This document shows, one piece after another, positions 18,362 through 32,000 of a stretch of DNA of 32,000 nt. The notes beneath the pieces are model-generated. The model had not been told where the DNA came from. It did no database searches and saw nothing but the letters and a program-made list of their open reading frames with translations. The position numbers were made by a program, and so were the translations under genes. The stretch is from Parasynechococcus marenigrum WH 8102 (GTDB lineage Bacteria; Cyanobacteriota; Cyanobacteriia; PCC-6307; Cyanobiaceae): assembly GCF_000195975.1 (NCBI RefSeq), contig NC_005070.1, forward strand, positions 2,160,001 through 2,192,000, read 5' to 3'. Position 1 is the first letter of the stretch, and each line of letters starts with the position of its first letter.

Positions 18362-18685
18362 ATGCCAAAGGGCGGCTGGCAGGAATTCAGCACCAGTGAA
18401 AGTCTGCAGCGAACGACCCCGGCGACCGAGCTGACGCCGAAAACACAGCAAATGGTGCGCGTGCAGCCCACCCGTGGCGGCAAGGGCGGCAAGACCGTCA
18501 CGATGATTCGCGGTTTGGAGCTGGACGCAGCTGGGTTCAAGGCCCTGCTCAAGAAACTGAAAACCAGGATCGGCAGCGGCGGCACCGCCAAGGACGGCGT
18601 AATCGAACTGCAGGGGGATCAGGTGGAGCTGGCCCTGGACCTGCTGACCAAGGAGGGCTACCGCCCAAAGCGCGCTGGTGGTTAA
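18362..18685 (+). CDS. SUI1/YciH-family translation initiation factor.
   Basis: 107 aa with '[20 protein letters not shown]' and '[17 protein letters not shown]', typical of the bacterial SUI1 (eIF1-like) domain. Confidence 0.85.
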
Positions 18686-18716
18686 GGGAGAATGGCGCCC
18701 ACTTCAGCCCGTCCCC

Positions 18717-19361
18717 ATGTCCGCCAGCCCCACCTACGGAGAGCTCACCAACCAGGGGGCGTCCACCAACATCGCCTGGCACCAGGCTTCGGTGGATCGG
18801 GCTGCACGGGCTGAGCAGCGCGGTCATCGCAGCGCCATCCTCTGGTTCACCGGGCTCTCCGGGTCCGGCAAAAGCACCCTGGCCAATGCCGTCAACGCCG
18901 CTCTGTTCCAACGGGGCCTGGCGACCTACGTGCTGGATGGTGACAACGTCCGCCACGGCCTCTGCAAGGACCTGGGCTTTTCCGATGCCGATCGCGAAGA
19001 GAACATCCGTCGCATCGGCGAGGTGGCCAAGTTGTTCCTGGACTCGGGCGTCATCGTGCTGACGGCCTTCGTGTCCCCCTTCCGCGCCGACCGGGACAAG
19101 GCCCGCGCCTTGGTGGACGACGGTGATTTTATCGAAATCCACTGCGCCGCGGATCTGGAGGTCTGCGAATCCCGCGATCCCAAGGGTCTCTACGCCAAGG
19201 CTCGTGCCGGCCAGATCAAGGAATTCACCGGCATCTCCAGCCCCTACGAAGCGCCACAGGCCGCAGAACTGAAGATCGACACCGGCAGCCAGGAGCTGGC
19301 TGAATCGGTTGACCTGGTGATCAAGGCCCTGCAGGAACGGGGGGTGATTCCGGCGGCTTGA
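18717..19361 (+). CDS. cysC: Adenylylsulfate (APS) kinase, which produces PAPS.
   Basis: '[16 protein letters not shown]' is the P-loop; '[10 protein letters not shown]' and 'FVSPF..DR' are APS kinase motifs. ATG 18717 is preferred over GTG 18678. Confidence 0.92.
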
Positions 19362-20397
19362 CGCCGGTCCGGGCTGCGTCAGCCAGGCTTTTGACGCAAC
19401 TGGCCACCGGCACCGCCAGCAGCAGACCCAACAGATCGCCCACACCGAGGATGGCCCCAAGCCGGGAGCCGATCGGCAGGGCGATCAATAACCAGGCGGG
19501 CTGCAGCCCCACGATGCTGCCCATCAGTCGCGGTTGGATCACCTGATCCACGATCTGGCCGACGACGATGGCCGCCACCAGCAGCTCGATCCCGGTGCGG
19601 GGGTCCTGAACGCCCAGCACAGCGCTGACGAACACGATGGTCAGGGCACTGGCATAGGGAATCAACGTGGTGAAGCCAATCAGCACGGCGAAGAGCACGC
19701 CGTAGGGGATCTCCAGCACGGTGAACACCACCAGTTGTCCAGCGCTGAGGATCAGGGCCAGCACCACCTGACCGGCGAAGTAGCCGCGGAAGGTGCGCTC
19801 CAGCGTTGAGCCCACCAATCCACGCCAAGGGAGCGGCAGCCACTCGAGCAGGCCCGCGGCGATCGAGTCGGCGCCAAGCAGCAGAAACACTGCCAGCACC
19901 AGGATGATCAGCACATTGATCGTGGTGCCCACCGTGGCCCCGAGAATCCCGAGGAGGCGTTGGCTGAACTGGGTGGCCACCCGACTGATCTGGGAGATCA
20001 GATCACTGCTGAGGTCGGCAAAGTCCGCGGGTAAACCATGGTTGATGGCCCAGGACTGCCCCTGGTTGATCCAGGCCTCAGCCGCTGCCAGCAATGCCGG
20101 CGAGGCGCTGATCAGCTGACTGAGCTGCGCGATCAACAGCGGCACCAGCTCCACGGCCGCCAGCACCAGCAGGCCCACGGTGAGCAGCATCACCATGGTG
20201 ATGGAACCGATGCGCGAGAGGCCTCGCCCCATCAGCCAGCGGCAGGGCAGGTCGAGCAGAAACGCGATCAAGGCCGCCGTCAGGAACAAACCGGGGAACG
20301 GTGCGAACTGCACCAGCACCCGTTTGAGCACAAAGGCGTTCACCCCAAGCAGCGGCAGCACCAATCCGAGACGCAGCCAGGCCGGCCAGGAGGTCAT
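19321..20397 (-). CDS. AI-2E family transporter / PerM-like permease.
   Basis: Multi-TM protein with '[18 protein letters not shown]' and '[26 protein letters not shown]', typical of the UPF0118/AI-2E family. The start is ATG 20397, or TTG 20412 overlapping the purE stop as TTGA. The 3' end overlaps cysC by 41 nt. Confidence 0.8.
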
Positions 20398-20408
20398 CGC
20401 GTTGAGGT

Positions 20409-20966
20409 TCAAGGGGTCGACATGCCGTCGAGATAGGCCGTACTGCCGAGATCGAGCAGACGGGCATCCTTGGCTGCCACTGCATCGTGCAACCTGCGGC
20501 GGTAGTCCGCCAGTCGGGCCGCCAGTGCCTCGTCTGCCACCGACAGGATCTGAGCAGCCAGCAATCCGGCATTGAGGCCACCGCCGATGGCCACCGTGGC
20601 AACGGGAATACCACCGGGCATCTGCACGATCGAGTGCAGCGAATCCACCCCGGACAGAGAACGGCTTCGGACGGGAACACCGATCACCGGCAGGGTGGTG
20701 AGGGCCGCCACCATCCCCGGCAGATGGGCGGCACCACCGGCACCGGCCACAATCACACCGAATCCCTCAGTGCGGGCCGCCTGGGCAAAGGCCACCATTT
20801 CCAGCGGTGTGCGGTGGGCTGACAACACCCGCACCTCCACCTCAACCCCCAGTTCCCGCAGGATCGCCGCGGCCGGTTCCATGGTCGGCAGATCGGAATC
20901 ACTGCCCATCACCACGGCCACGCGGGGAAAAACTGTCGTCACGAGAAAGACCGGCAAGACTGTCAT
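20409..20966 (-). CDS. purE: N5-carboxyaminoimidazole ribonucleotide mutase (PurE).
   Basis: '[15 protein letters not shown]', 'VLSAHRTP' and '[17 protein letters not shown]' are canonical PurE motifs. ATG 20966 gives 185 aa. The rest of the listed 638-aa ORF is an antisense artefact over nagA. Confidence 0.9.
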
Positions 20967-20999
20967 CGTCTCCCGCAGCGGCCCAGGCGGCCAGACCTG

Positions 21000-22148
21000 A
21001 TGCGACGGATCACCGATGTGCGCCTGCCCGCACCCCTCGGCAGCGAGACGGAGCGACCCCATTGGATCGGCCTCAACGACGAGGGCCGAATCGTCGAAAT
21101 CCAGCCCCAGATTGACGATGAAACCTGCCCTGGCTCGAGTTGGCACGGAGATTGGCTGAGCCCCCGCGGCATGGACCTGCAGATCAACGGTGGGCTCGGC
21201 CTGGCCTTCCCGGAACTGAGCGCGACGGATCTGCCGCGGCTGATCGGGCTGCTGGAGCTGCTCTGGGCCGATGGAGTCGAGGCCATCGCTCCAACCCTGG
21301 TGACCTGCGGCATCGCCCCACTTCGCCAGGCCCTGGCGGTGTTGCACCAGGCGCGACTGCAGCACCAACCGGGCCGCTGCCGATTGCTGGGAGCCCATCT
21401 GGAGGGCCCCTTTCTGGCGGAGGCCCGCCGCGGGGCCCATCCGATCGAGCATCTGGCAGCGCCCAGCCTGGAGGCCCTGGACCACCGCATCAGGGGATTT
21501 GAATCCGACATCGCCCTGGTGACCCTGGCGCCGGAACTTGCGGGGGCCAACACTGTGATCAGCGCGCTGCGTCAACGCAACATCACCGTGGCCCTGGGCC
21601 ACAGTGCCGCCAAAGCAGAACAGGCGGGGCAGGCTTTTGAGCAGGGCGTGGGGATGCTCACCCATGCCTTCAATGCCATGCCAGGCCTGCACCACCGGGC
21701 TCCGGGACCTGTGGGGGAAGCCTGCCGCCGCGGCGACATCGCCCTGGGCCTGATCGCCGACGGGGTGCACGTCGATCCGACGATGGCGGTGCTGCTGCAA
21801 CGGCTGGCGCCGGAACAGCTGGTGCTGGTGAGCGATGCCCTGGCCCCCTACGGCCTGGCGGATGGCGAGCATCGCTGGGACGAAAGGGTGCTGTTGGTGC
21901 AGAACGGCACCTGCCGGCTGGAGGACGGCACCCTGGCTGGCGTGACCCTGCCGCAGCTGGAGGGGGTGAAACGGCTGGCGACCTGGAGCGGCGCAGCAGG
22001 CGCAGCAATCTGGGGAGCCACGGTCGCACCACGACGGGTGATCGGCACCGCTGGGACCTTGAACGACGCGCTGGTGGGCCAGCGGCTGACCAACCTGCTG
22101 CGCTGGAGCCAACGCGAGGGGGAGCTCCACTGGGCCTGCGCTGCTTAA
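21000..22148 (+). CDS. nagA: N-acetylglucosamine-6-phosphate deacetylase.
   Basis: '[11 protein letters not shown]', 'HLEGPFL', 'ALGHSAA' and 'THAFNAMP' are amidohydrolase NagA motifs. Confidence 0.85.
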
Positions 22149-22175
22149 GATCCCGCCGAACACGACCCACCTTCG

Positions 22176-22889
22176 ATGGCCCCCGATCAACTGCTGGAGC
22201 AGAAACAGGCCGAAAAGCAGGAGGTGAAGGGCTACTTCGAGACCACGGGCTTCGATCGCTGGAATCGCATCTACAGCGAAAGCGATGACGTGAACAAGGT
22301 GCAGCGCAACATCCGCATCGGCCACCAGAAAACCGTGGATGAAGTGCTGGCCTGGATCAAGGACAGCGGCGAGCTCAACGAGGTGAGCTTCTGCGATGCC
22401 GGCTGCGGGGTCGGCAGCCTCAGCCTGCCGTTGGCCGAAATGGGGGCCGGTTCAATCAGCGCCAGCGACATCTCCGAAGCCATGGCGCAGGAGGCGGACC
22501 GCCGCGCCCGCGCGGCTGGTCTGGACATGGGCAAGCTGAACTTCTTTGCCAGTGATTTGGAGAGCCTCAGCGGCTCCTTCCACACGGTGTGCTGCCTGGA
22601 TGTATTCATTCACTACCCCCAGCAACCGGCCGAGGAAATGGTGAAACACCTCTGCAGCCTCACCGAAGAGCGCCTGATCGTGAGCTTTGCGCCCTACACC
22701 CTGCTGCTGGCACTGCTGAAGGGCATTGGCCAGCTGTTCCCCGGCCCCAGCAAAACCACCCGGGCCTACACCTTGAAAGAAGAGGGCATCGTCAAATCGG
22801 CGGAAGCCTGTGGCTTCAAGCTGGTGCGCCGCAGCCTGAACAAAGCACCCTTCTACTTCTCGCGGTTGATCGAATTCCGCAAGGCCTGA
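22176..22889 (+). CDS. chlM: Mg-protoporphyrin IX methyltransferase.
   Basis: '[18 protein letters not shown]', '[20 protein letters not shown]' and '[14 protein letters not shown]' closely resemble ChlM. Confidence 0.92.
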
Positions 22890-23800
22890 TCTCCCTCAAC
22901 TGAGGGATCCACCTGGAGTGTTGTCTCCCCCAAGTGAGGGAGACCCGAAAGCTGCCAGGCATGCAGCCGATAGCCCCCATCGCCAGGGGTTGCCGTCGCC
23001 GAAATCTCCCGGTTGAGCAAATAGAGCGGATCCCCCAGCAGCGGGCTGCCCAGCTGTGCCAGATGAATGCGGATCTGATGCGGTCGGCCTGTGGTGATCG
23101 TCACCTGCAAGCGATCGCCCTCAGCCGTTCGCTCCAAAAGCTCCAGCTCGGAACGAGCTGTGAGGCGTTTGCGGATCGGCTCCTGCTTGAGCGGTTCCGG
23201 CCCCCAGACCCAACCCAGCAGAGGATGCTGCCGCTCCACCACATCATTGGTGACCGTCAGGGTCTGCCCCTGCTCCAAACCCGGCACCCGCTGGGCCCAG
23301 GCCTGATACACCTTGCGGCAGCTGCCCTCTGGCCTGAACTGTTTGGACAGCGCCGCGCGGGTCATCGGATCCCGAGCACACACCTGCAAGCCGGAGGTGA
23401 ACCGCCCCAACCGATGCACCGGCCGCGCACCGGTGGGCTCCAACAGTGCCGTAAGCGTGTGGAGCAGAAAACCACCGCCAGGCATCACCGGCAGACCCGA
23501 AGGCTTGTTGATCACCAGCAGATCGCCGTCGTCATGGATCGTCTCCCATTGATCGGGGATCGCCTCCTCCAGCCAGGGAGGACGACGCCAGAGGACTGCT
23601 TCACCGCCAGCCAGCCGCCGATCCGCCGTCAAGCGTTGCCCATTGCAATCCAGTTCGCCGGAATGGATTCTTTGCCGCCAGACCTCTCCAGCGGAATGCT
23701 GATAGCGCTCCGCCAGCCAACAACTCAACCAAGTACCAGCTGCCCCTACCGGCACTCGGTCGCGATACGTCCAGCCGTCGTTGAACGCCGCTGGCTTCAA
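22853..23800 (-). CDS. RluA-family pseudouridine synthase.
   Basis: 'LLVINKPSGLPVMP', 'HRLGRFTSGLQV' (catalytic-Asp-type motif context) and 'GRPHQIRIHLA' are present. The TTG start overlaps the upstream response-regulator TGA as TTGA at 23797-23800. Confidence 0.82.
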   Translation of the reverse strand: MKPAAFNDGWTYRDRVPVGAAGTWLSCWLAERYQHSAGEVWRQRIHSGELDCNGQRLTADRRLAGGEAVLWRRPPWLEEAIPDQWETIHDDGDLLVINKPSGLPVMPGGGFLLHTLTALLEPTGARPVHRLGRFTSGLQVCARDPMTRAALSKQFRPEGSCRKVYQAWAQRVPGLEQGQTLTVTNDVVERQHPLLGWVWGPEPLKQEPIRKRLTARSELELLERTAEGDRLQVTITTGRPHQIRIHLAQLGSPLLGDPLYLLNREISATATPGDGGYRLHAWQLSGLPHLGETTLQVDPSVEGDQALRNSINREK

Positions 23801-24534
23801 GTCACCAGACGGTGCTCCAGCGCATAGCGCACCAGCTCCGTGCGACTGGAGGTGCCGGTCTTGTTGAACAGGCGACTCACGTACTTCTCCACATTGCGGA
23901 TCGACGTCTCCAGCTGACGGGCGATCTCTTTGTTCATCAATCCTTCCGCCACCAGCTGCAGCACACTCGCCTCCCGTGGGGTGAAGCTATGCACCACCGG
24001 CTCCTTCGAGGGCAGGGCCTCGGCCTGAGCAAGCAAGGAGCGGATCTCGGTGATCTGCTTCGCCATCTGGCCCATATCCGTATCCGCAAAGCGGGCCGCC
24101 TCCTGCAACAACCGCTGCTGTCGCTGGGCCACGTTGCGCACCCGCGCCACTAGCTCGTCCGGATCAAACGGCTTGGGGATGTAGTCATCCACGCCGGCCA
24201 GGTAACCCTGGGTGCGGTCCGCCGTCATGCCCTTGGCGGTGAGGAAGATCACCGGCGTGCCGCCGAGGCGTTCATCGGCCCGGAGCTTTTTCAGCAGACC
24301 GTAGCCATCCAACCGCGGCATCATCACGTCGGTGATCACCACATCCGGCAGCATCTGCTGCGCCTTGCTGAAACCTTCCTCTCCATCCACCGCCGTGGTC
24401 ACCTCAAACCCCTCGTCCTCGAGGTAGGCCTGCACCGCCGTACGCAGCCCAGGCTCGTCATCCACCAGCAGCAGCCGCGGTACCGGAGGAGGAGCCTCCT
24501 GCTCGTCGGTGCTGGGAAGGGGCGTATCGGTCAT
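23797..24534 (-). CDS. NarL/FixJ-type two-component response regulator (REC plus LuxR HTH). It is an orphan, with no kinase adjacent.
   Basis: The REC domain has 'RLLLVDDEP' and 'DVVITDVMMPRLDG'. The HTH is 'LTPREASVLQLVAEGLMNKEIARQLETSIRNVEKYVSRLFNKTG'. It is possibly a Ycf29/Rre1-type regulator, unverified. Confidence 0.88.
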   Translation of the reverse strand: MTDTPLPSTDEQEAPPPVPRLLLVDDEPGLRTAVQAYLEDEGFEVTTAVDGEEGFSKAQQMLPDVVITDVMMPRLDGYGLLKKLRADERLGGTPVIFLTAKGMTADRTQGYLAGVDDYIPKPFDPDELVARVRNVAQRQQRLLQEAARFADTDMGQMAKQITEIRSLLAQAEALPSKEPVVHSFTPREASVLQLVAEGLMNKEIARQLETSIRNVEKYVSRLFNKTGTSSRTELVRYALEHRLVT

Positions 24535-24558
24535 GGCCGGAATCGCTCTTCTGAAAGC

Positions 24559-25086
24559 CTATGGACGGGGAGACTTCGGAGCCAGTGCGGGTAACTGCTG
24601 CTGACGTTCGGGAATCAGGGTCGAATAGCCCAGATCCAGGGCCTTCTGGCGCAGGCTGGCAGGCTCGGTTCCCGCCACTTCGGGAACACAGGCTGCCCAC
24701 CACACCAGGTGATCCTCACGGTTGGTGTCGCTCACGGGACCACCCGGATTGAGATTGCGCACGTAAACCGCCGTGGACGTCCGTTTGACGCGCAGGGGAT
24801 TGGTGGCACTGCAGTTCACAGACTCGAAGTAGATGTTCAGATCATTCGGCAGTTCCTCCCAGATCTTGTACTGCCGCACTTTCGGATCAGCGGCGCTGGG
24901 TTTGATTGCATAGATGCCGATGGTGCGGAGACCTCCGGCATCAGGCTTTTGGATCAGGACGGTGAGATCTGCGGGGCGGGAGTTCTTCATCTGCTCCAAC
25001 ACCTCCTTGCGATCAATGGCAGCCGCCCCCATCGGGACCAGCAACAGCGCCAGGCCGGTCCAAGCCGTCGGGAATCGCAGACCCAT
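24559..25086 (-). CDS. Secreted or periplasmic hypothetical protein.
   Basis: ATG 25086 gives 'MGLRFPTAWTGLALLLVPMGAAAIDRK', a signal-peptide-like N-terminus. The gene is co-directional with the response regulator and 24 nt upstream of it. I recognise no family. Confidence 0.6.
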   Translation of the reverse strand: MGLRFPTAWTGLALLLVPMGAAAIDRKEVLEQMKNSRPADLTVLIQKPDAGGLRTIGIYAIKPSAADPKVRQYKIWEELPNDLNIYFESVNCSATNPLRVKRTSTAVYVRNLNPGGPVSDTNREDHLVWWAACVPEVAGTEPASLRQKALDLGYSTLIPERQQQLPALAPKSPRP

Positions 25087-25195
25087 GCAGTGATCAACAA
25101 CGTGGCCCAGCATGATCGCAACAGCGTGAATCAACCAGCTGCCGCGCCGTCCTCTCGACTTTGACTACCAAGCCACCACGCCCTGCGCCGCGGAG

Positions 25196-26272
25196 GTGGT
25201 GGAGGCGATGGCGCCCTACTGGAGCGAGGATTGGGGCAATCCCTCCAGCCGTCAGCACCGGCTGGGCCTGACCGCTTCAGCGGCGGTGAACCTGGCGCGG
25301 CGGCACATCGCGGATGCGCTGGCGGTGACGCCACAGCAACTGGTGTTCACCAGTGGTGCCACCGAAGCCAACAACCTGGCCTTGCTGGGCCATGCCCGGG
25401 CCAGGGGCAGCGGCCATCTGATCAGCGTGGCCACCGAACATCACGCCGTGCTCGATCCGCTCCAACAACTGCAGCGGGAAGGTTTCAGCGTCACCCTGCT
25501 GACCCCGGGCCCCGAGGGGCTGATCACCCCTGAGCAGCTAAGGCAGGCGATCACCCCCGAGACGCAGCTGGTGAGCGTGATGGCGGCCAACAACGAAATC
25601 GGGGTGCTCCAACCCCTGACGGCCCTGGCCGCGGTGTGCCGCGACCACGGAGTCACCCTTCACAGCGACGCCGCCCAGGCCTTCGGTCATATCCCTCTGG
25701 AACCAGATGCCATGGGGGTTGACCTGATGAGCCTCAGCGCCCACAAGCTCTATGGCCCCAAAGGCGTTGGCGCCCTGGTGATCCGAGACGGAATTGCCCT
25801 GCAACCCCTTCAATGGGGTGGTGGCCAGGAAGCGGGACTCAGGGCGGGCACCTTGCCCACGGCCCTGATTGTAGGCTTCGCCGCCGCCGTGCGACTGGCC
25901 ATGCAAGACCGAGAACAACGCCAGCAGGAGCTCTCGGCGCTGCGGGATCAGCTCTGGGCTGACGTGCAGCACAAGATCCCTGGCGTGCGCTTGAACGGAG
26001 CCCTGGCCCCGAGGCTTGCCCACAACCTCAACATCACCCTGCCCGGGGTGAGCGGCAGCCGCCTGCAGCGCGCCCTCAAGCCCCAGCTCAACTGCAGCAG
26101 CGGCTCCGCCTGCAGCAACGGCGCACCCTCCCACGTGCTGCAAGCACTGGGTCGCACGCGCGCCGAAGCCGAAGCATCCCTGCGACTGAGTCTGGGCCGC
26201 GACACCACAAGCGACGACATTCATCAGGCTGTGATCGCCATTGGTGATGCCGTTGCTGCAGTTCAGAGCTGA
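25196..26272 (+). CDS. Class V aminotransferase, cysteine desulfurase (NifS/IscS-like). The true start is probably upstream, at about 25130-25139 (see findings).
   Basis: 'SAHKLYGPKGVGAL' holds the PLP lysine and 'SSGSACS' is the catalytic Cys loop. The conserved 'LDFDYQATTP' is encoded in frame upstream of the first canonical start. Confidence 0.88.
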   Translation: MVEAMAPYWSEDWGNPSSRQHRLGLTASAAVNLARRHIADALAVTPQQLVFTSGATEANNLALLGHARARGSGHLISVATEHHAVLDPLQQLQREGFSVTLLTPGPEGLITPEQLRQAITPETQLVSVMAANNEIGVLQPLTALAAVCRDHGVTLHSDAAQAFGHIPLEPDAMGVDLMSLSAHKLYGPKGVGALVIRDGIALQPLQWGGGQEAGLRAGTLPTALIVGFAAAVRLAMQDREQRQQELSALRDQLWADVQHKIPGVRLNGALAPRLAHNLNITLPGVSGSRLQRALKPQLNCSSGSACSNGAPSHVLQALGRTRAEAEASLRLSLGRDTTSDDIHQAVIAIGDAVAAVQS

Positions 26273-26305
26273 ACTACCTACTGTCCGGACGATTGACCCG
26301 GATCG

Positions 26306-27103
26306 ATGACCAGCAGGGCCGAGCTTTCCGTTGGCACCGCAATCCAAGAGGGTTGGCGCGCCTTTCGCCTGGCTCCCTGGGCTTTCGTTGGCTTTGTGCT
26401 GCTCAGCACGCTGCTGGCCCAGTTGGCCAATGTTATTCCCCTGCTGGGTGCTCTGGTGGCGACGTTGGTGAACCTTTGGGGTGGTGTTGGCCTGATCCGC
26501 GGCTCATGGATTGCCCTGGGGGGCACTGCCCCTCGCTTTGAAGACTTCACCCGCTGGAACGGGGCTGCCGTCTGGCGACTATTCAGCCGACAGCTGGTGC
26601 TTGGCCTGCTGCTGCTGCCCATCGCCCTGCTGGTGATCGTCGTGGCCCTCAATGCCGCCGATGCCTGGACGGTGTTCGCTCCGCTGATGAATCTGGCTCT
26701 GACGGTGGACCCAAGCGATCCGCAGCTGGCCGACGCCGGCAGTGCTGCCGCCCTGGAGCTGGCCCTGAATTTCAGCCACAGCCCCCTGGCATTGCTGACG
26801 GTGGCGATGGGCTGGCTGTTCGCCACCTACATCCAGGTGAACCAAAGCTTCCTCGGATTCATTGCCCTGCTGGAAGGCCGTAACCCAATCGCCACGATTC
26901 GACGCGGGATCACCGTGGTGCAAGGTCAGTGGTGGCAGGTGTTCGGCCTGTTGATCCTGCAGGTATTGATCCTGATGCTGGGAGTGTTGGCCTGTGTGGT
27001 GGGTCTGGTGGCCGCTGCTCCGGTGTGTCTTTGCATCACAGGGGCCGCTTACCGACAACTGTTCGGCCAGGACGACGCAGCTGGCCTGCTCAAGAATCAG
27101 TGA
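26306..27103 (+). CDS. Integral membrane protein of unknown function; the last high-GC gene before the island.
   Basis: 265 aa with an ATG start and about six hydrophobic segments, for example 'WAFVGFVLLSTLLAQLANVIPLLGALVATLV' and 'VFGLLILQVLILMLGVLACVVGLVAAAPVCLCI'. Confidence 0.65.
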   Translation: MTSRAELSVGTAIQEGWRAFRLAPWAFVGFVLLSTLLAQLANVIPLLGALVATLVNLWGGVGLIRGSWIALGGTAPRFEDFTRWNGAAVWRLFSRQLVLGLLLLPIALLVIVVALNAADAWTVFAPLMNLALTVDPSDPQLADAGSAAALELALNFSHSPLALLTVAMGWLFATYIQVNQSFLGFIALLEGRNPIATIRRGITVVQGQWWQVFGLLILQVLILMLGVLACVVGLVAAAPVCLCITGAAYRQLFGQDDAAGLLKNQ

Positions 27104-27338
27104 TCGACTTGCGGACCTTCAACAAGATCCGGTGAGAGATCAGTCCAATCAACCCGCATTTGCGTCAGCGCAAGAACACGACCAAACAACGTTGGCGCAG
27201 TTTTGGCACGCTTTGAATCATCGATGAAGCGGTGCAGCCAGTTAACCGGCCTTAGACTGAGTAAGAGATGCAATGACTTTGCCAACCAAAACGCCAGAAA
27301 ATTACACCAATCGAAAAGTATAGACATTATTTGAGAAG

Positions 27339-29294
27339 CTAGATATTATCAATTAAATCAACAGCCGAGACTTCAGATACCTCGAGATCTACTCCCTCGA
27401 GAAGCAACCTCCGGGAACCATCAATCACAAGAAGCCCATCTCCAATCTTTCTGAATTGAGTTTCGTCAATGCTATCGACATGGACACGGTCAATCCCGAC
27501 TTGAAAGTCGAGAACCCGATCTAGCCCCCTCGAAGGCCGGAAAACGTCAGAACCTTTGCCCCCAGTTAGCAGGTCAACCCCTTTGCCTCCGTTGAGATGA
27601 TCGTCTCCACGTCTTCCGTTGAGAACATCATCACCATTTTTACCTAGAAGTCGGTTATTGCCATCATTACCAGTCAAAGCATTATTGCGCCGATCGCCAA
27701 ATGCGTCTGGATTTCCATAACCAAAAAGCCACACATTCTTAGCAGCGGAATTAACTAGATTGAGACGCACGTCAATGAGCGATACAATCTTGTTGCCCAA
27801 GTTTGCTTGTGTTTTATCGTCGAAAAATGGGGTAGAAACGGAAACAATTCCAGACTCCAACTGAGAGGCATCATGCGATACGAATCGATCTGCATTTTCC
27901 CCCCAACTAACGATTGAGCCATTGTCCTTCAAAGCTGCAAACGAAGTCCCGGAGCTGAAGACATGCACGACATTCGATTGCAAGCTTGTTTCTACAGAAC
28001 TGCTGTCACCACCTTTAGCTGGCGCGCCCCAGGCAACAACTGATCCATCATCCTTTAAAGCAGCAAATGCTGAATTATTAGAAAAAATCTCAACAACCCC
28101 CGAAGATAACTGACTGGAGACATTGGAGCTGTCTCCACCGGTTATTTCTTTTCCCCAAGTCACAACAGAGCCATCACTTTTTAGAGCGGCCATGGATTGA
28201 CCGGTCGAGTAGATCGACACGACGCCTGAACTGAGCTCTGACGTGACCTCAGCAGGCAAAATGTCTGGATCCTCTCGCCAACCACCCCAACTCACAACAG
28301 ATCCATCACGCTTTAAGGCAGCAAATCCAGTCCAGCATGAAAAAAGATCAACGACATCACCACTGATTTGATCGCGAACCGCCCGACTATCGCCGCCCTG
28401 ATAATAACGACCCCATGTCACAACGGATCCATTCTTTTTCAATGCCGCAAATGCCTTATAGGAGGGAACAACTTTTTCAATACCCTTCTTCAAGCGTTTT
28501 GAATCATTGTATAACTCCTGACCGGGCTCAAGACTGATATCACCATTGGGGAATACTCGATCAAATGTCACTTTTGTGTCATCCTCAACTTCATCCGAAT
28601 AACTCACTCGCCCCAACTCACCGCCGGACGTCTTGTTACCAATAACTTTTACTCTTCCGTCACCAAGCAGGAAGGCAAAAGCTTGATGATTCGCGATAAT
28701 TTGCGAGACGTTATTCAAACGCTCAACCAATTCCAGATCACTATCATCGCGCACGCTTCGATTACCCCAAGTAATTACACTCCCGTCGCCGCGAAGAGCC
28801 GCAAAAGTTTCACTCATATTGTCAATCTCGGTAAATGTTGACACAACTGATTCAACATTATTGATATTTTCTTGTGAGACTTCCCCAAAGGTTCCTCCTC
28901 TTTCAGGATCACCCCAAACAACCAAAGTCTTGTCGTCCTTTAAAGCGGCAAAGGCAGTGCCCGTAGAGAAGATATTCACCACTCCTCCTTTCAGGAGAGG
29001 TTTGACGTTTTCACTATTTCCGCCTTGCCTCCTATCACCCCATGTAATAACTGAACCATCTGTCTTCAACGCAGCAAATGCTTTACGAGTCGCAAAAATT
29101 TGTGCAACATCAGCATCAAGCTGATCAATGACCTTACTGGAATCACCACCAGTCTTTGGATCACCCCATGTCACGACCGATCCATCGTCGCGGATCGCTG
29201 CAAAAGCCGCCTTATTTCGTATCTCATACGCCGTTCGTCCTGATTCAGAAACGGGCGTTTTGGTGAACAGAATTAGAGGTTGAAGACCGTTCAA
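27339..29294 (-). CDS. RCC1/BLIP-II-like beta-propeller repeat protein with C-terminal RTX (hemolysin-type Ca2+-binding) repeats; probable type I secretion substrate.
   Basis: 651-aa ORF. Ten 'FAALKxDGSVvtWG' repeats are followed by GGxGxD nonapeptides. There is no N-terminal signal peptide. The start is TTG 29294, and there is no in-frame ATG in the first ~150 codons. Confidence 0.8.
   Translation of the reverse strand: MNGLQPLILFTKTPVSESGRTAYEIRNKAAFAAIRDDGSVVTWGDPKTGGDSSKVIDQLDADVAQIFATRKAFAALKTDGSVITWGDRRQGGNSENVKPLLKGGVVNIFSTGTAFAALKDDKTLVVWGDPERGGTFGEVSQENINNVESVVSTFTEIDNMSETFAALRGDGSVITWGNRSVRDDSDLELVERLNNVSQIIANHQAFAFLLGDGRVKVIGNKTSGGELGRVSYSDEVEDDTKVTFDRVFPNGDISLEPGQELYNDSKRLKKGIEKVVPSYKAFAALKKNGSVVTWGRYYQGGDSRAVRDQISGDVVDLFSCWTGFAALKRDGSVVSWGGWREDPDILPAEVTSELSSGVVSIYSTGQSMAALKSDGSVVTWGKEITGGDSSNVSSQLSSGVVEIFSNNSAFAALKDDGSVVAWGAPAKGGDSSSVETSLQSNVVHVFSSGTSFAALKDNGSIVSWGENADRFVSHDASQLESGIVSVSTPFFDDKTQANLGNKIVSLIDVRLNLVNSAAKNVWLFGYGNPDAFGDRRNNALTGNDGNNRLLGKNGDDVLNGRRGDDHLNGGKGVDLLTGGKGSDVFRPSRGLDRVLDFQVGIDRVHVDSIDETQFRKIGDGLLVIDGSRRLLLEGVDLEVSEVSAVDLIDNI
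27540..27680 (-). repeat. RTX nonapeptide (GGxGxDxUx) calcium-binding repeats, about 5 units.
   Basis: The stretch 'LTGNDGNNRLLGKNGDDVLNGRRGDDHLNGGKGVDLLTGGKGSDVF' (aa 539-585) is followed by 'VLDFQVGIDRVHV', a typical RTX C-terminal secretion-region context. Confidence 0.85.
27885..29210 (-). repeat. Ten tandem ~42-aa coding repeats (propeller blades).
   Basis: The FAAL cores sit at aa 31, 73, 115, 164, 206, 282, 324, 368, 410 and 452. Their spacings are 42, 42, 49, 42, 76, 42, 44, 42 and 42 aa. The consensus is aFAALKxDGSVvtWG-x6-GGDSs-V-x3-L-x2-gVv-iFSt. Confidence 0.85.
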
Positions 29295-29603
29295 AAGGCT
29301 TTTTTACAAGATCTAACTGATCCACTTTACACGAATCATCCATATGCCTTGGAGAAAGCGTCTGAAAGAGGAGTTAACCCTATGTTGTACAGCTAGTACC
29401 GCATAAACACGAACATCACCGAAGCGGGAACATGCTCATACTCGGGACGTGGTAATCAATCAAAAGATCGTCTCGGCGAGAATTCCTTTAGGGGAAATGA
29501 AGCACAATTGAGGGTGTATTCTGATGGCGACAACAAGACTCACCTGGGCAAAATAGGACTCATTTAACAATCATAGAAAATCGCATGAACTGAACAATGA
29601 ATA

Positions 29604-31331
29604 TTATTTCATGCCATAATTCTGGTCGCAACGGTCCTGTAATAGCTCCAGATAGGGGGTGCCTGAAAAGCCCTTTTCCCAAACCGACCGGCATCGTAAA
29701 AGGGTACTTTGGTCAAGTTCTGAGATTCGTCTCTTGATTTCCTGATCAGAAATTTGCAATCGAGATTTTTCTATCTCATGGGCAGCTCCTGAACCTTGTA
29801 TAAAATTATCTAGTGATTGATGATAATCAGACTTCATATCAACTGGTAAAATAGTATCGATAAAATCAGGCGATATGCTAATGCCAGTTATCCTGTTACA
29901 GCCTGGTCTGTTCTCCTTAAATGGAATTGGATCCGACTTTCCTCCAATATATTTGACTTGGTTAGCATGGGGCTTGAACATACGATATGAGTATTCGAGT
30001 ACAGAGCGATTATGACGATGCAGTACAACAGAAGTATGGGATTTAGAATAAAATTGTTTTTCGGAAGGCACGATAGCACCTGGTGCCTCAAATCCAATTT
30101 CTGTCAAATTTAAGTCTTGAGGATTACCTACAGCATCAATTACTCGGGCAGAAGATTGTCGAAACACAGGCGCATGACAACGCAGCTCAACAAGGTCAGA
30201 TCGGTAGGCAACAAAGCTTTTTACACTGCTTTTCAAGCGAAAATCAAGACCCCTGGATAATGGGGCTGAGAATTGATCCTCATGAAAACAGTTAACCCAG
30301 TTACAGGATAAACAATCAAAACCCTTGCAACTCTCTAAATACGATTCAACCTTCATGGGAAAGGGCTGAGCCACCCAGAACTCGTCAACATCTACAAACA
30401 AGCAATATGATGAATGTGTCACCGAAGCGGCATAATGATAAAGCTTTGAATACGAACTTCTCTGTGTCAACTCAACATGAACATCATCAGTGCTGATAAC
30501 ATGAATCCGGGGATCAGCAGCTGCAAGCTGCAGGGCAAAGTCGTAGGTCTTGTCGCTTGAGTTGTTAATACCAATGAATATATTAGAAAAACCAAGAAAG
30601 AGATAGTGGTGAACGAATTCGTGAAGATAAGGCGCTTCATCTGAAGCAATGCAAATAACATCGCAGCGGTAAGATTTAGGTATAGACCGATCACGCCAGA
30701 GCGAACGCGCTTCCAGAATTCGATGAGCGCTTAAATGTTGAAACTTAAGCTTCTGGATACCGCGCTTTGCCGTGAGAAGCTTTGACTCTAAATTAGATTT
30801 CCTCTTCGTTGACGATATCTTATTGGTTACTTGAGATTCAACCATCCGAAAGGCCCTTAAGAAAATATCGTCAGAATCCTCGAACACCCCGCATGCTAAT
30901 TGAGTTTCCAAGACCGCAGTGCAAACCTTGGAGTTAGCCTTCTTCTTGCTCATACATTTTCTCGCATACTGCAGCGCTAATTCATAGCGACCCATCATCT
31001 GCAATCCTCTCGCACCAATCCAAAGCAAGCTGTAACTATCCGGCTTGAATCTCAAAGCACGCCTCAACAATGATTCAAATTCCGAAAGATTCGCTTTGGA
31101 GCGCAAGGCTTTCAATCGACAAATATATAATTGAATATTATCCGAATTTGATAGCAGAAGTATTTCTGCAATCTTATCGGCATCACCATATAACTTATTG
31201 CGCATTAAAAGAGAAAAAGCCTGCCAGGCAAGAGAATGTCTTTTTGAAAGACGTAGAAGGTTAGAGTCTTTATGCAGCAAGTTTTGCAGGCTCTCAACAT
31301 CTTGAAGAGCAACGGCTTGACGGATATTCAT
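29604..31331 (-). CDS. Two-domain protein: an N-terminal TPR-like helical repeat region and a GT92 / Glyco_tranf_2_4-like glycosyltransferase domain.
   Basis: ATG start, 575 aa. Aa ~222-320, 'CDVICIASDEAPYLHEFVHHYLFLGFSNIFIGINNSSDKT...LFVDVDEFWV', has the NE-x-YL-EW-type N-terminal motif and a DxD (DVDEF, nt 30378-30392). Aa ~30-165 are amphipathic helix pairs. Confidence 0.7.
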   Translation of the reverse strand: MNIRQAVALQDVESLQNLLHKDSNLLRLSKRHSLAWQAFSLLMRNKLYGDADKIAEILLLSNSDNIQLYICRLKALRSKANLSEFESLLRRALRFKPDSYSLLWIGARGLQMMGRYELALQYARKCMSKKKANSKVCTAVLETQLACGVFEDSDDIFLRAFRMVESQVTNKISSTKRKSNLESKLLTAKRGIQKLKFQHLSAHRILEARSLWRDRSIPKSYRCDVICIASDEAPYLHEFVHHYLFLGFSNIFIGINNSSDKTYDFALQLAAADPRIHVISTDDVHVELTQRSSYSKLYHYAASVTHSSYCLFVDVDEFWVAQPFPMKVESYLESCKGFDCLSCNWVNCFHEDQFSAPLSRGLDFRLKSSVKSFVAYRSDLVELRCHAPVFRQSSARVIDAVGNPQDLNLTEIGFEAPGAIVPSEKQFYSKSHTSVVLHRHNRSVLEYSYRMFKPHANQVKYIGGKSDPIPFKENRPGCNRITGISISPDFIDTILPVDMKSDYHQSLDNFIQGSGAAHEIEKSRLQISDQEIKRRISELDQSTLLRCRSVWEKGFSGTPYLELLQDRCDQNYGMK

Positions 31332-31443
31332 GTCTTAATTACGGTACTTTCTATATTAGCTCAAATGATTTGATTCAATGCCAATATAGGACGCTGCATG
31401 CCAAGCAAACTGCCTTGACGCCACGCATCAGCAGTTAGCATGC

Positions 31444-31472
31444 TTGACAACGCTAGCTAGGACAATTAATGT
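31444..31472 (+). promoter_or_regulatory. Candidate sigma70-type promoter for the sulfotransferase gene.
   Basis: TTGACA (31444-31449), a 17-nt spacer, then TAATGT (31467-31472), which ends 19 nt upstream of the GTG at 31492. It lies in a 160-bp AT-rich divergent intergenic region. Confidence 0.35.
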
Positions 31473-31491
31473 ATAGTTAATTTTTTTATAA

Positions 31492-32000
31492 GTGCTTCAA
31501 ACAAAGGCTTGGATTTATCTTACAGTACAAAAGACAGGATCGACATTCCTTTCAAAAAAACTAATTGAGATTTACGGGCAAGCAGCATTTTCTAAAGACC
31601 GGAAACACGGCATACAAAAGAAATCAACATCTAAATCTAAAATCATCACAATCAGAGATCCATTCGATTACTACTTTTCATTATGGTCATATGGCCTTGA
31701 TGGAAAAGGGGGATTCAGCAATAAGTTAAGGATCTCAAATCCGAGTCTTGCCGAGAAAATATATGGAAAAAAAACCAAATCATGCTTCTCTCATTTTTTA
31801 GACCTAGCCCTCTCATTCCCAGGCAGAAACTCTCAAAGTGAGGTTAGCTGGCTACCTCGAAGTACTGATTTATACACTGCTCGAATTCTGACAATGCTTG
31901 TGCCTCAAGATAAAATTGAACGGTTTAGCAGTGAATTAGATTGCGACTTTTCTGGAAAGTCTATTGCAAAGTCACTCAATGAACTCTTGCCAGAAGTGAT
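31492..32000 (+). CDS. Sulfotransferase (PAPS-dependent, Sulfotransfer_2/3-like). It is 3'-truncated by the window end and is not in the supplied ORF track.
   Basis: My own translation of frame 1 gives (GTG)LQTKAWIYLTVQKTGSTFLSKKLIEIYG...KSKIITIRDPFDYYFSLWSYGLDG...LLPEV, open to nt 32000 and preceded by TAA at 31489-31491. 'QKTGST' matches the 5'-PSB loop and 'IRDPFDYYFSLWSY' the 3'-PB motif of sulfotransferases. Confidence 0.7.
   Translation, partial: MLQTKAWIYLTVQKTGSTFLSKKLIEIYGQAAFSKDRKHGIQKKSTSKSKIITIRDPFDYYFSLWSYGLDGKGGFSNKLRISNPSLAEKIYGKKTKSCFSHFLDLALSFPGRNSQSEVSWLPRSTDLYTARILTMLVPQDKIERFSSELDCDFSGKSIAKSLNELLPEV

Follow-up and report, generated by a model that had tools for sequence, protein, structure and literature searches.

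What kind of element interrupts the core genome of Parasynechococcus marenigrum WH 8102 (Synechococcus sp. WH8102) after a 27-kb run of core genes, and do the enzymes that it encodes act on the surface protein encoded beside them? The DNA under study, hereafter the window, is the 32,000-nucleotide stretch from position 2,160,001 to position 2,192,000 of the forward strand of contig NC_005070.1 (NCBI RefSeq assembly GCF_000195975.1). An AT-rich region at its right-hand end carries the genes for an RCC1-like propeller/RTX protein, a glycosyltransferase with an arm resembling tetratricopeptide repeats (TPR), and a sulfotransferase-like protein, SulfA, that runs out of the window; a second such protein, SulfB, lies beyond. 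We conclude that this region is a horizontally acquired, strain-specific island inserted exactly between two convergent core genes, those for a membrane protein and for rsmH. Marine Synechococcus is a major primary producer, and its strain-variable surface islands are thought to set, strain by strain, the attack by phages and grazers; few island genes have a defined role. The genes treated here have been annotated in the WH8102 model genome since 2003. What is new is the exact insertion with its empty site, a fourth gene, the finding that the cassette recurs as a unit at two sites, and model-based structural support for the TPR-like/GT-A and sulfotransferase assignments; the export of the RTX protein (PMC4949707) and the class of variable surface islands were already known. 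The locus tags SYNW2292-2296 were deduced from the NP numbering (anchor, SYNW2303 = NP_898392.1), by which the window part of the locus is SYNW2292-2295. The features are collected in Table 1.

Table 1. Features of the island, its junctions, and related genes, in window coordinates.
Feature	Position	Strand	Basis or remark
APS kinase, cysC	18678-19361	+	PF01583, E 2.5e-70; 8 kb left of the island
Conserved membrane protein, 265 aa, CAE08807.1 (SYNW2292 by numbering)	26306..27103	+	left flank, last core gene
Small open reading frame, 76 aa	27097..27327	-	doubtful reality; overlaps the stop codon of the flanking gene
Left junction, TGATCGACTTGCGGACC	27101..27117		imperfect direct repeat of the right junction
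RCC1-like propeller/RTX protein, 651 aa, NP_898382.1 (SYNW2293)	27339..29294	-	Pfam and NCBIfam matches
Acidic C-terminal tail, 65 aa, after the RTX nonapeptides	27342-27536	-	translation
Five consecutive RTX nonapeptides, residues 542-586	27537..27671	-	translation, PF00353
Propeller, ten 'FAALKxDGSVVTWG' blade repeats, mostly 42 aa apart, residues 31-465	27900..29204	-	regular-expression count
Spacer, 309 bp, from the glycosyltransferase gene (upstream) to the RTX gene (downstream), same direction	29295..29603		open reading frame coordinates
Glycosyltransferase, TPR-like + GT-A, 575 aa, CAE08809.1/WP_011129147.1 (SYNW2294 by numbering)	29604..31331	-	PF13704, exact match
Predicted GT-A catalytic domain, residues 223-450	29982..30665	-	model, Foldseek, invariant columns
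DxD motif, D314-V-D316	30384-30392	-	D314 and D316 invariant across 42 homologues
Predicted N-terminal TPR-like helical hairpins, residues 1-170	30822..31331	-	secondary structure of the model
Divergent intergenic region, 160 bp, glycosyltransferase/SulfA	31332..31491		no RNA family or tRNA found
SulfA (SYNW2295 by numbering), first 169 of 261 codons, GTG start	31492..32000	+	translation; gene end at ~32,277, outside the window
A7 homopolymer within SulfA	31554-31560	+	A6 in the otherwise identical contig L001 (ERZ922651)
SulfB, second sulfotransferase-like protein, 269 aa (fourth island gene)	right of ~32,277, outside the window	convergent with SulfA	Sulfotransfer_3
Right junction, TAATCGCTTGCGTGCC	~33,823-33,838 (window-equivalent), outside the window		partner of the left junction

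The composition of the DNA breaks sharply at the left edge of this region. In 1-kb intervals, the GC content of the first 27 kb was 0.56-0.69 (0.63-0.67 immediately left of the break), and from 27,000 to the window end the successive values were 0.48, 0.475, 0.47, 0.45, 0.43, 0.41, and 0.39. Intervals of 200 nt placed the drop between 27001-27200 (0.58) and 27201-27400 (0.415), that is, no more than about 200 nt from the stop codon of the membrane-protein gene at 27101-27103. The tetranucleotide correlation with the first 27 kb was 0.81-0.96 in every 2-kb interval up to 26001 and 0.12, -0.04, -0.16, and -0.25 in the last four, and the GC content at third codon positions (GC3) lay at 0.75-0.78 for four core genes but at 0.39-0.40 for all three island genes of the window. 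The break far exceeds chance, and the uniform GC3 of the three genes fits acquisition en bloc. A first-pass annotation, made by a model from the window sequence, had described about 27 kb of housekeeping genes at about 65% GC followed by a composition collapse within about 200 nt of the stop at 27103, and both statements hold, Pfam scans having shown core genes on the left and all three composition measures breaking at that stop. Its figure of 33-40% GC after the break fits the right-hand end, where the minimum of 0.345 was reached, but is too low for the RTX gene, which has a GC content of 0.41-0.54 per 200 nt.

The insertion was delimited with the help of a clade-mate, A15-28, in which the site is cleanly empty and the 3' ends of the membrane-protein gene and of rsmH overlap. 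Strain WH8103 (LN847356.1) has the same region as WH8102 at 99.6% identity, and its alignment with A15-28 gave 86% nucleotide identity to the left of the site and 88% to the right, with 6,726 bp standing against 3 bp at the site itself. From the points at which this alignment breaks and resumes, the insert extends from window position 27102/27104 to ~33,826 in window-equivalent coordinates, a total of 6.7 kb containing four genes and two small open reading frames (ORFs). The three genes from which the first-pass annotation had built its island are all present, but the island continues beyond 32000 with a fourth; to the right of the window the end of SulfA is followed by the convergent SulfB, a 94-aa ORF, rsmH, ndhH, a DUF2752 gene, and a thioesterase gene.

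The accessory nature of the insert was examined against its syntenic surroundings. The order response regulator, orf184, desulfurase, membrane protein, rsmH, ndhH, thioesterase is kept in Prochlorococcus, marine Synechococcus, and Cyanobium, and orthologues of the 265-aa membrane protein adjoin rsmH across picocyanobacteria. A contig scan with the flanking cysteine desulfurase listed 80 loci, from outside the WH8102 clade (best hits 75-82%). Among these listed matches the distance from the desulfurase to ndhH was 1.0-3.2 kb in all of the ~20 loci with both genes on the contig, compared with 8.5 kb in WH8102, and the four-gene cassette was absent from all 80. The empty site of A15-28 and the absence of the cassette from the ~20 syntenic relatives among the matches listed bear out the earlier description of an accessory island, and we regard its status as an island and as accessory DNA as almost certain.

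The WH8102 island has no integrase and no transposase or insertion sequence (IS) element, tRNA and Rfam scans of it found nothing, and an ungapped repeat search found no repeats flanking it. Alignment against the empty site, by which alone it was seen, brings out an imperfect direct repeat of 12-17 nt at the two junctions, of which A15-28 has a single copy, CTTGCGGGCC; because the repeat is short and imperfect, its meaning is uncertain. An assembly artefact was considered as an origin of the junctions and rejected, since two complete genomes and several independent metagenome contigs have the same ones.

The 651-aa RTX protein is the island product that has been seen outside the cell. The published exoproteome of WH8102 (Christie-Oleza et al., PMC4949707) contains NP_898382.1, whose sequence, starting MNGLQPLILFTKTPVSESGRTAYEIRNK, is identical to the window protein, and records a 3.3-fold increase of it in co-culture with Ruegeria pomeroyi and a decrease in the dark; the authors remarked on its 'alpha-tubulin suppressor-like' (RCC1) domain. 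Export from the cell is shown by that experiment. The matches listed in the table of that study include two C-terminal peptides of the protein, at residues 520-536 and 616-628, but none of four tryptic peptides predicted for the propeller, a result too thin to suggest modification. The accessions of the neighbouring enzymes and of the membrane protein are absent from the supplementary tables of the same paper.

The architecture of the protein agrees with such a location. It matched RCC1_2 (PF13540; E 1.5e-26, 91.9 bits versus a cut-off of 22) and HemolysinCabind (PF00353; E 1.5e-10, 41.2 bits versus a cut-off of 23), the RCC1-like whole-domain model PF25390 reached 110 bits, under its cut-off of 150, and NCBIfam matches were confined to the C-terminal beta-roll parts of serralysins, ZapA, and RTX toxins. 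The propeller is also visible in the DNA as a repeat family with a 126-nt period. The nonapeptides translate as GNDGNNRLL GKNGDDVLN GRRGDDHLN GGKGVDLLT GGKGSDVFR. The protein is acidic (isoelectric point 4.8) and has no membrane segment. Its N-terminus, MNGLQPLILFTKTPVSESGR, which homologues share from residue 1 onwards, has neither a hydrophobic core (maximum 19-residue hydropathy 1.29) nor a signal peptide. Type I secretion, which the first-pass annotation had derived from an RTX protein lacking a signal peptide, fits the missing signal peptide and the extracellular finding, but no transporter genes are linked, a point taken up below; the RTX features suggest it as the probable export route.

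The glycosyltransferase assignment is well supported. The protein, annotated as 'glycosyltransferase family 2 protein' under WP_011129147.1, scored 48.5 bits with Glyco_tranf_2_4 (PF13704; cut-off 27.5); with GT92 (PF01697) it scored 18.7 bits, under the cut-off of 23, whereas a homologue on contig L097 scored 31.8, above it. An AF2 model built on 42 homologues had a predicted local distance difference test score (pLDDT) of 90.5 and places a long helix (residues 177-214) after the TPR-like array and a helical C-terminal domain after the GT-A domain. The top Foldseek hits were OGT and SPY, through the TPR part only (template modelling [TM] score ~0.23, root-mean-square deviation ~17 A), and the GT-A domain found GalS1 (GT92), SpsA, and SunS at E 1e-5 to 1e-4. 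Pfam matches to TPR_14, TPR_16, and TPR_19 occur in homologues, the window protein itself having no TPR match at E below 0.01. The fusion of a glycosyltransferase to a TPR-like domain, proposed from the translation at first pass, is supported by a confident model, by Foldseek, and by the Pfam matches of the homologues. In the 309-bp spacer between this gene and the RTX gene, promoter and terminator consensus matches were at chance level only, and there was no Rfam match.

Both remaining proteins are probable sulfotransferases. SulfA is 261 aa in full length in WH8103 and in homologues. Among 29 homologues, none of them named and none with a Pfam match, K14, G16, H39, R55, and S63 are invariant and T15 is conserved in over 90%; by our own reading K14/T15/G16 (KTG) may be the 5'-phosphosulfate loop for 3'-phosphoadenosine 5'-phosphosulfate (PAPS), and R55 and S63, eight residues apart, the 3'-phosphate site. 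A model of SulfA (pLDDT 88) gave top 50 Foldseek hits that were almost all PAPS sulfotransferases; the first were heparan-sulfate 6-O and 2-O sulfotransferases, as weak hits (best E 0.056, TM 0.48), and a search of the Protein Data Bank (PDB) with the SulfA profile returned nothing. The invariant motifs together with these fold hits make SulfA a probable PAPS-type sulfotransferase, which agrees with its first-pass identification, although its Pfam score, given below, stays under the curated cut-off. SulfB, likewise a probable sulfotransferase by sequence, returned only noise from the PDB as a single sequence and, as a profile, only protein-tyrosine sulfotransferases, weakly (E 0.03). No relatedness between SulfA and SulfB was detectable (hhalign probability 0.1). 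The gene for adenosine 5'-phosphosulfate (APS) kinase, which lies among the core genes of the window, is also present in island-free A15-28, so that PAPS supply for incoming sulfotransferase genes is a core-genome trait. This gene, and a CysQ-like gene that neighbours the SulfA homologue of L088, provide a favourable setting for sulfuryl transfer from PAPS.

A 71-kb metagenome contig (L001, ERZ922651) shows zero substitutions relative to window positions 19604-32000 and differs in one homopolymer base. With A6 in place of A7, SulfA is frameshifted and its KTGST loop lost; in the same contig rsmH has G8, compared with G7 in WH8103, which splits that gene. These tract differences could be sequencing error or real on/off variation. 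The contig is labelled 'estuary metagenome', and its 12.4-kb substitution-free overlap means either that the genotype is widespread or that the laboratory strain contaminates, or was spiked into, data sets. Exact WH8102 sequences were found in 67 public-assembly sample blocks for the glycosyltransferase and in 98 for the membrane protein.

Whether the four genes belong together was judged from their occurrence elsewhere. The order SulfB, SulfA, glycosyltransferase, RTX, with the same orientations, is kept in WH8102/WH8103, in L145, and in L005/L146/L147, so the genes co-occur beyond WH8102 and the island proposal withstands the refuting condition set at first pass, that they never do so. Contig L145 (87-92% amino acid identity) has orf94, SulfB, SulfA, glycosyltransferase, RTX, and membrane protein (92%) at the same site. 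In L005/L146/L147 all four proteins are 68-74% identical, in the same order and orientations, and after the RTX gene comes the 5' end of rsmH, which puts the cassette on the opposite side of that gene; it thus lies 5' of rsmH in L005, L147, and L146 (7165-8998) and 3' of it in WH8102. Its presence at this second site indicates that it moves as a unit, and the two insertion points suggest that insertions recur in the few kilobases around rsmH, an apparent hot spot. Contig L096 (59% for the glycosyltransferase) has SulfB, SulfA, and glycosyltransferase before the contig ends. Judged from these gene orders and identities, the four-gene cassette has been inherited and relocated as one unit; the tightest pair in the sequences compared is SulfB with the glycosyltransferase, and the link to the RTX gene is confined to the closer cassettes. 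That the four genes form one functional unit we consider moderately probable.

Related genes were also found in other surroundings. The SulfB-glycosyltransferase pair of L097 has a GC content of 0.40 in a 0.7-GC genome, and the inserts of L097 (4533-8274) and L110 (593-5355) are both of low GC (0.39-0.44) in high-GC (0.6-0.7) Cyanobium-like genomes and flanked by IS5-type (DUF772/DDE_Tnp_1) transposase fragments, that of L110 also having a methyltransferase gene. The SulfA homologue of L090 stands alone. A 34%-identical RCC1-RTX homologue in L092 shares its island with two sulfotransferases, NeuB, and an ABC-2 exporter, and that of L093 has no sulfotransferase, NeuB, or exporter-type neighbours on the side covered by the contig. 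A literature search by locus tags (SYNW2292-2296 and 2303), together with the supplements of Dufresne 2008, found SYNW2293-2296 nowhere named as an island or system, in line with the first-pass annotation, which had not recognised the gene trio as a described system; two papers on cyanophage infection of WH8102 make no mention of the island genes, of any glycosyltransferase, or of any sulfotransferase.

The three island enzymes have no signal peptide and no membrane segment, and we suggest that they attach a sulfated sugar to a molecule destined for the cell surface. The reading we prefer, at a probability of roughly 0.38, is that the cassette modifies a surface protein of its own. While still in the cytoplasm, the newly made, calcium-free propeller/RTX protein would be bound by the TPR-like arm of the glycosyltransferase, the GT-A domain would transfer a sugar from a nucleotide sugar onto it, and the sulfotransferases would then sulfate that sugar, SulfB possibly modifying a tyrosine. 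Once decorated, the protein would be exported by a type I secretion system encoded elsewhere, fold on calcium outside the cell, and alter the surface as met by phages, grazers, and neighbouring bacteria. That the RTX protein itself accepts the sugar or sulfate is a tentative proposal. It is supported by the survival of the RTX linkage through ~30% divergence and a change of site; by the TPR-like arm, since in Caulobacter FlmG such a domain binds the substrate protein, which is exported later (PMC7591256); by the presence of SunS, a peptide glycosyltransferase, among the GT-A fold hits; and by the protein-tyrosine sulfotransferases that were the only PDB hits, weak as they are, of the SulfB profile. 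The fuller version, a mobile and self-contained pathway for a sulfated glycoprotein with TPR/GT-A O-glycosylation, two sulfations, and type I export, is rather doubtful.

Several observations weigh against decoration of the RTX protein by its neighbours. No type I secretion genes (ABC, membrane-fusion, or outer-membrane) were found in the 32-kb window or in the 9 kb beyond, although this lowers the type I claim only slightly, because unlinked transporters are common. The Pfam scores of both sulfotransferase-like proteins fall under their cut-offs (SulfA, Sulfotransfer_2, PF03567, 17.6 bits versus 22; SulfB, Sulfotransfer_3, E 1.6e-5, 25.7 bits versus 27), and the gaps between the glycosyltransferase and RTX genes, 309 bp in WH8102 and ~800 bp in L005, mean that an operon is not evident. 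Looser combinations occur as well: in L094 (73%) SulfB adjoins the glycosyltransferase without SulfA; in freshwater L097 (41-43%) SulfB and the glycosyltransferase stand by an IS5-type transposase without an RTX gene; glycosyltransferase homologues at 30-45% identity form solitary low-GC inserts in L002, L110, L117, and L126; and L006 (4914-9752) has tandem TPR + GT-A (PF13704/GT92) paralogues of 930 and 583 aa. Other relatives have glycan-related neighbours, the glycosyltransferase homologue of L121 standing beside WbsX/RgpF, methyltransferase, and dTDP-rhamnose genes, and the SulfA homologue of L088 in a cluster with GDP-mannose genes, an epimerase, a CysQ-like gene, and a GT2 gene. These rfb-like and GDP-mannose contexts and the L097 pair without RTX favour the other reading that we hold nearly level, by which the enzymes place their sulfated sugar on a lipid-linked surface glycan (lipopolysaccharide [LPS] O-chain or exopolysaccharide) built elsewhere and the RTX protein is a passenger or is anchored on that glycan. 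That reading, a serious and still tentative candidate, is also favoured by the carbohydrate sulfotransferases that head the weak SulfA fold hits, by the resemblance of the GT-A domain to the GT92 galactan synthase GalS1, by the L092 island with its exporter and NeuB, and by the location of most cyanobacterial sulfotransferases within exopolysaccharide clusters (PMC8205485). Its anchored variant would likewise explain the joint travel of RTX protein and enzymes; a mere passenger, on the other hand, is unlikely to have stayed linked through ~30% protein divergence and a change of insertion site. A TPR-like domain is more typical of protein recognition, and the island has no priming transferase, flippase, polymerase, or ABC exporter, hence no self-contained polysaccharide pathway. 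Without genes for polymerisation or export, the island enzymes can only decorate something made elsewhere.

Two further explanations are less likely. The rsmH region might be an insertion hot spot in which unrelated surface genes pile up, a view that draws on the two insertion points flanking rsmH, on a second low-GC island with a giant protein ~3 kb past the right edge that is also absent from A15-28, and on the richness of marine Synechococcus islands in glycosyltransferases and giant proteins (PMC2441476). Hard to square with it are the constant order and orientation of the four genes in three lineages, at similar divergence (68-74% for all four in L005), and the uniform GC3 of the island genes, and random accretion would not rebuild the set at a second site, so that we consider chance co-location improbable. 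Still further down in likelihood, and in our view scarcely credible, is an origin as a prophage remnant, a phage-derived moron, or an anti-phage defence system: the low GC content (~40%) does resemble that of cyanophage genomes and the genes do lie in a hypervariable island, but the island has no integrase, tRNA, or RNA element, no island protein matched PHROGs or PADLOC, and profile scans of 2.9 million viral contigs found no relative of the glycosyltransferase or SulfA.

Comparison with described systems places the island in a familiar class. Glycosyltransferases are the main known function of picocyanobacterial islands, for which a role in avoiding grazers and phages has been proposed (Dufresne et al. 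2008, PMC2441476). Like the hypervariable islands of Synechococcus and Prochlorococcus described there, the WH8102 island has atypical composition, strain-specific presence, glycosyltransferases or carbohydrate-modifying enzymes, and a large or odd exoprotein, and it resembles these other surface islands in its working. Unlike the typical ones, it is only 6.7 kb long and lacks an integrase, a transposase, and a tRNA, and its compact four-gene cassette recurs intact in other lineages and at a second site.

WH8102 is among the genomes in which such hypervariable islands, reportedly also treated by Palenik et al. in 2003, were first described, and Brahamsha, and McCarren and Brahamsha, reportedly worked on SwmA and SwmB of this strain with their linked gene clusters for glycosyltransferases and ABC transporters. 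For both of these exported, calcium-binding surface proteins of RTX type, production or localisation reportedly depends on glycosyltransferases encoded nearby, and SwmA is a reported glycoprotein. The island thus resembles them in strain, in an exported calcium-binding RTX-type protein, and in a nearby glycosyltransferase; it differs in that there is no sequence relationship, the protein is a 70-kDa RCC1-like propeller with no known motility role, sulfotransferases belong to the set, and no transporter is linked. Both Swm proteins are present in the WH8102 exoproteome (PMC4949707). The RTX protein is likewise similar to type I-secreted RTX exoproteins (reviewed in PMC3034196) in its C-terminal GGxGxD nonapeptides, acidity, lack of a signal peptide, and extracellular location, but, unlike RTX toxins and serralysins, it carries no toxin or protease domain and has an RCC1-like propeller as passenger, and no ABC, membrane-fusion protein, or outer-membrane genes are adjacent.

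The enzymes invite comparison with protein glycosylation. OGT/SPY (GT41) and FlmG share with the island glycosyltransferase an N-terminal TPR array, a C-terminal catalytic domain, and, on present predictions, a cytoplasmic location; their catalytic domains are GT-B, whereas that of the island enzyme is GT-A with DxD, so that the enzyme is not a GT41 member and is an analogue in architecture at most. By this analogy the island may work like FlmG/OGT-type protein glycosylation. GalS1 (8d3z, poplar, GT92), Bacillus subtilis SpsA (1h7l), and SunS (7msp, the sublancin S-glycosyltransferase) share the GT-A fold and DxD but lack the additional TPR-like N-terminus and helical C-terminal domain, and at 11-14% identity they do not allow donor sugar or acceptor to be deduced. 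The xss (synechan) cluster of Synechocystis 6803 has eight glycosyltransferases, two sulfotransferases of different subfamilies, Wzx/Wzy, and regulators (PMC8205485). The island likewise combines a glycosyltransferase with two unrelated sulfotransferase-like proteins, but the glycosyltransferase is its only one, and in place of genes for priming, polymerisation, or export it encodes an exported protein. It does not belong to the exopolysaccharide clusters of xss type.

The cassette offers a practical test case, being small, situated in a genetically tractable model strain, possessed of a product that is exported and responsive to a heterotroph, and recurring intact in wild populations. It makes addressable how an island gene set alters the cell surface and whether bacteria make sulfated glycoproteins, the alternative being that the common sulfotransferases of marine cyanobacteria serve polysaccharides only. 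If the sulfated-glycoprotein pathway is correct, it would be a convergent, GT-A-based counterpart of OGT or FlmG and a rare case of protein-linked sulfation in bacteria, swappable between strains to change surface identity. Should the enzymes act on LPS or exopolysaccharide, the result would be ordinary and would still give the four genes a function.

Some features lie at the margins of these questions. The 76-aa ORF at the left junction has no family match in Pfam, PADLOC, or PHROGs; only 29 of its residues are weakly conserved in the lineage of 88% identity, and the WH8103 annotation gives it 58 aa. The two freshwater paralogues of the glycosyltransferase in L006 ('Cyanobacteria bacterium K_Offshore_surface_m2_239') adjoin dnaK and shikimate dehydrogenase genes. 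The second low-GC region (0.45-0.52), ~3 kb past the right edge of the island (L001 1-3898, ~37,400-41,300 in window-equivalent coordinates), encodes a surface protein of giant size (>1,900 aa), in which ALTTAQ repeats and linkers rich in Thr/Pro/Ser occur. By its position alone this protein is most likely SYNW2303 (NP_898392.1), which is up 5.2-fold in the co-culture exoproteome (PMC4949707). A15-28 is without this region too, its men genes coming after the thioesterase gene.

The left 27 kb contains core genes throughout, among them ndhD/F-type, ndhA/I/G, scpA, MTHFR, NAD kinase, citrate synthase, and hrcA, and further APS kinase, purE, chlM, pseudouridine synthase, response regulator, and cysteine desulfurase genes, up to the membrane-protein gene (GC3 0.75), whose exact 265-aa product occurs in WH8102 and WH8103. 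At 20409-22325 (-), the mechanical 638-aa ORF has the purE (AIRC) domain at residues 468-613 only, the real purE within it being about 170-185 aa. Opposite this ORF, at 21000-22148 (+), lies a conserved 382-aa ORF that has no Pfam match and is an annotated gene in both WH8103 and A15-28.

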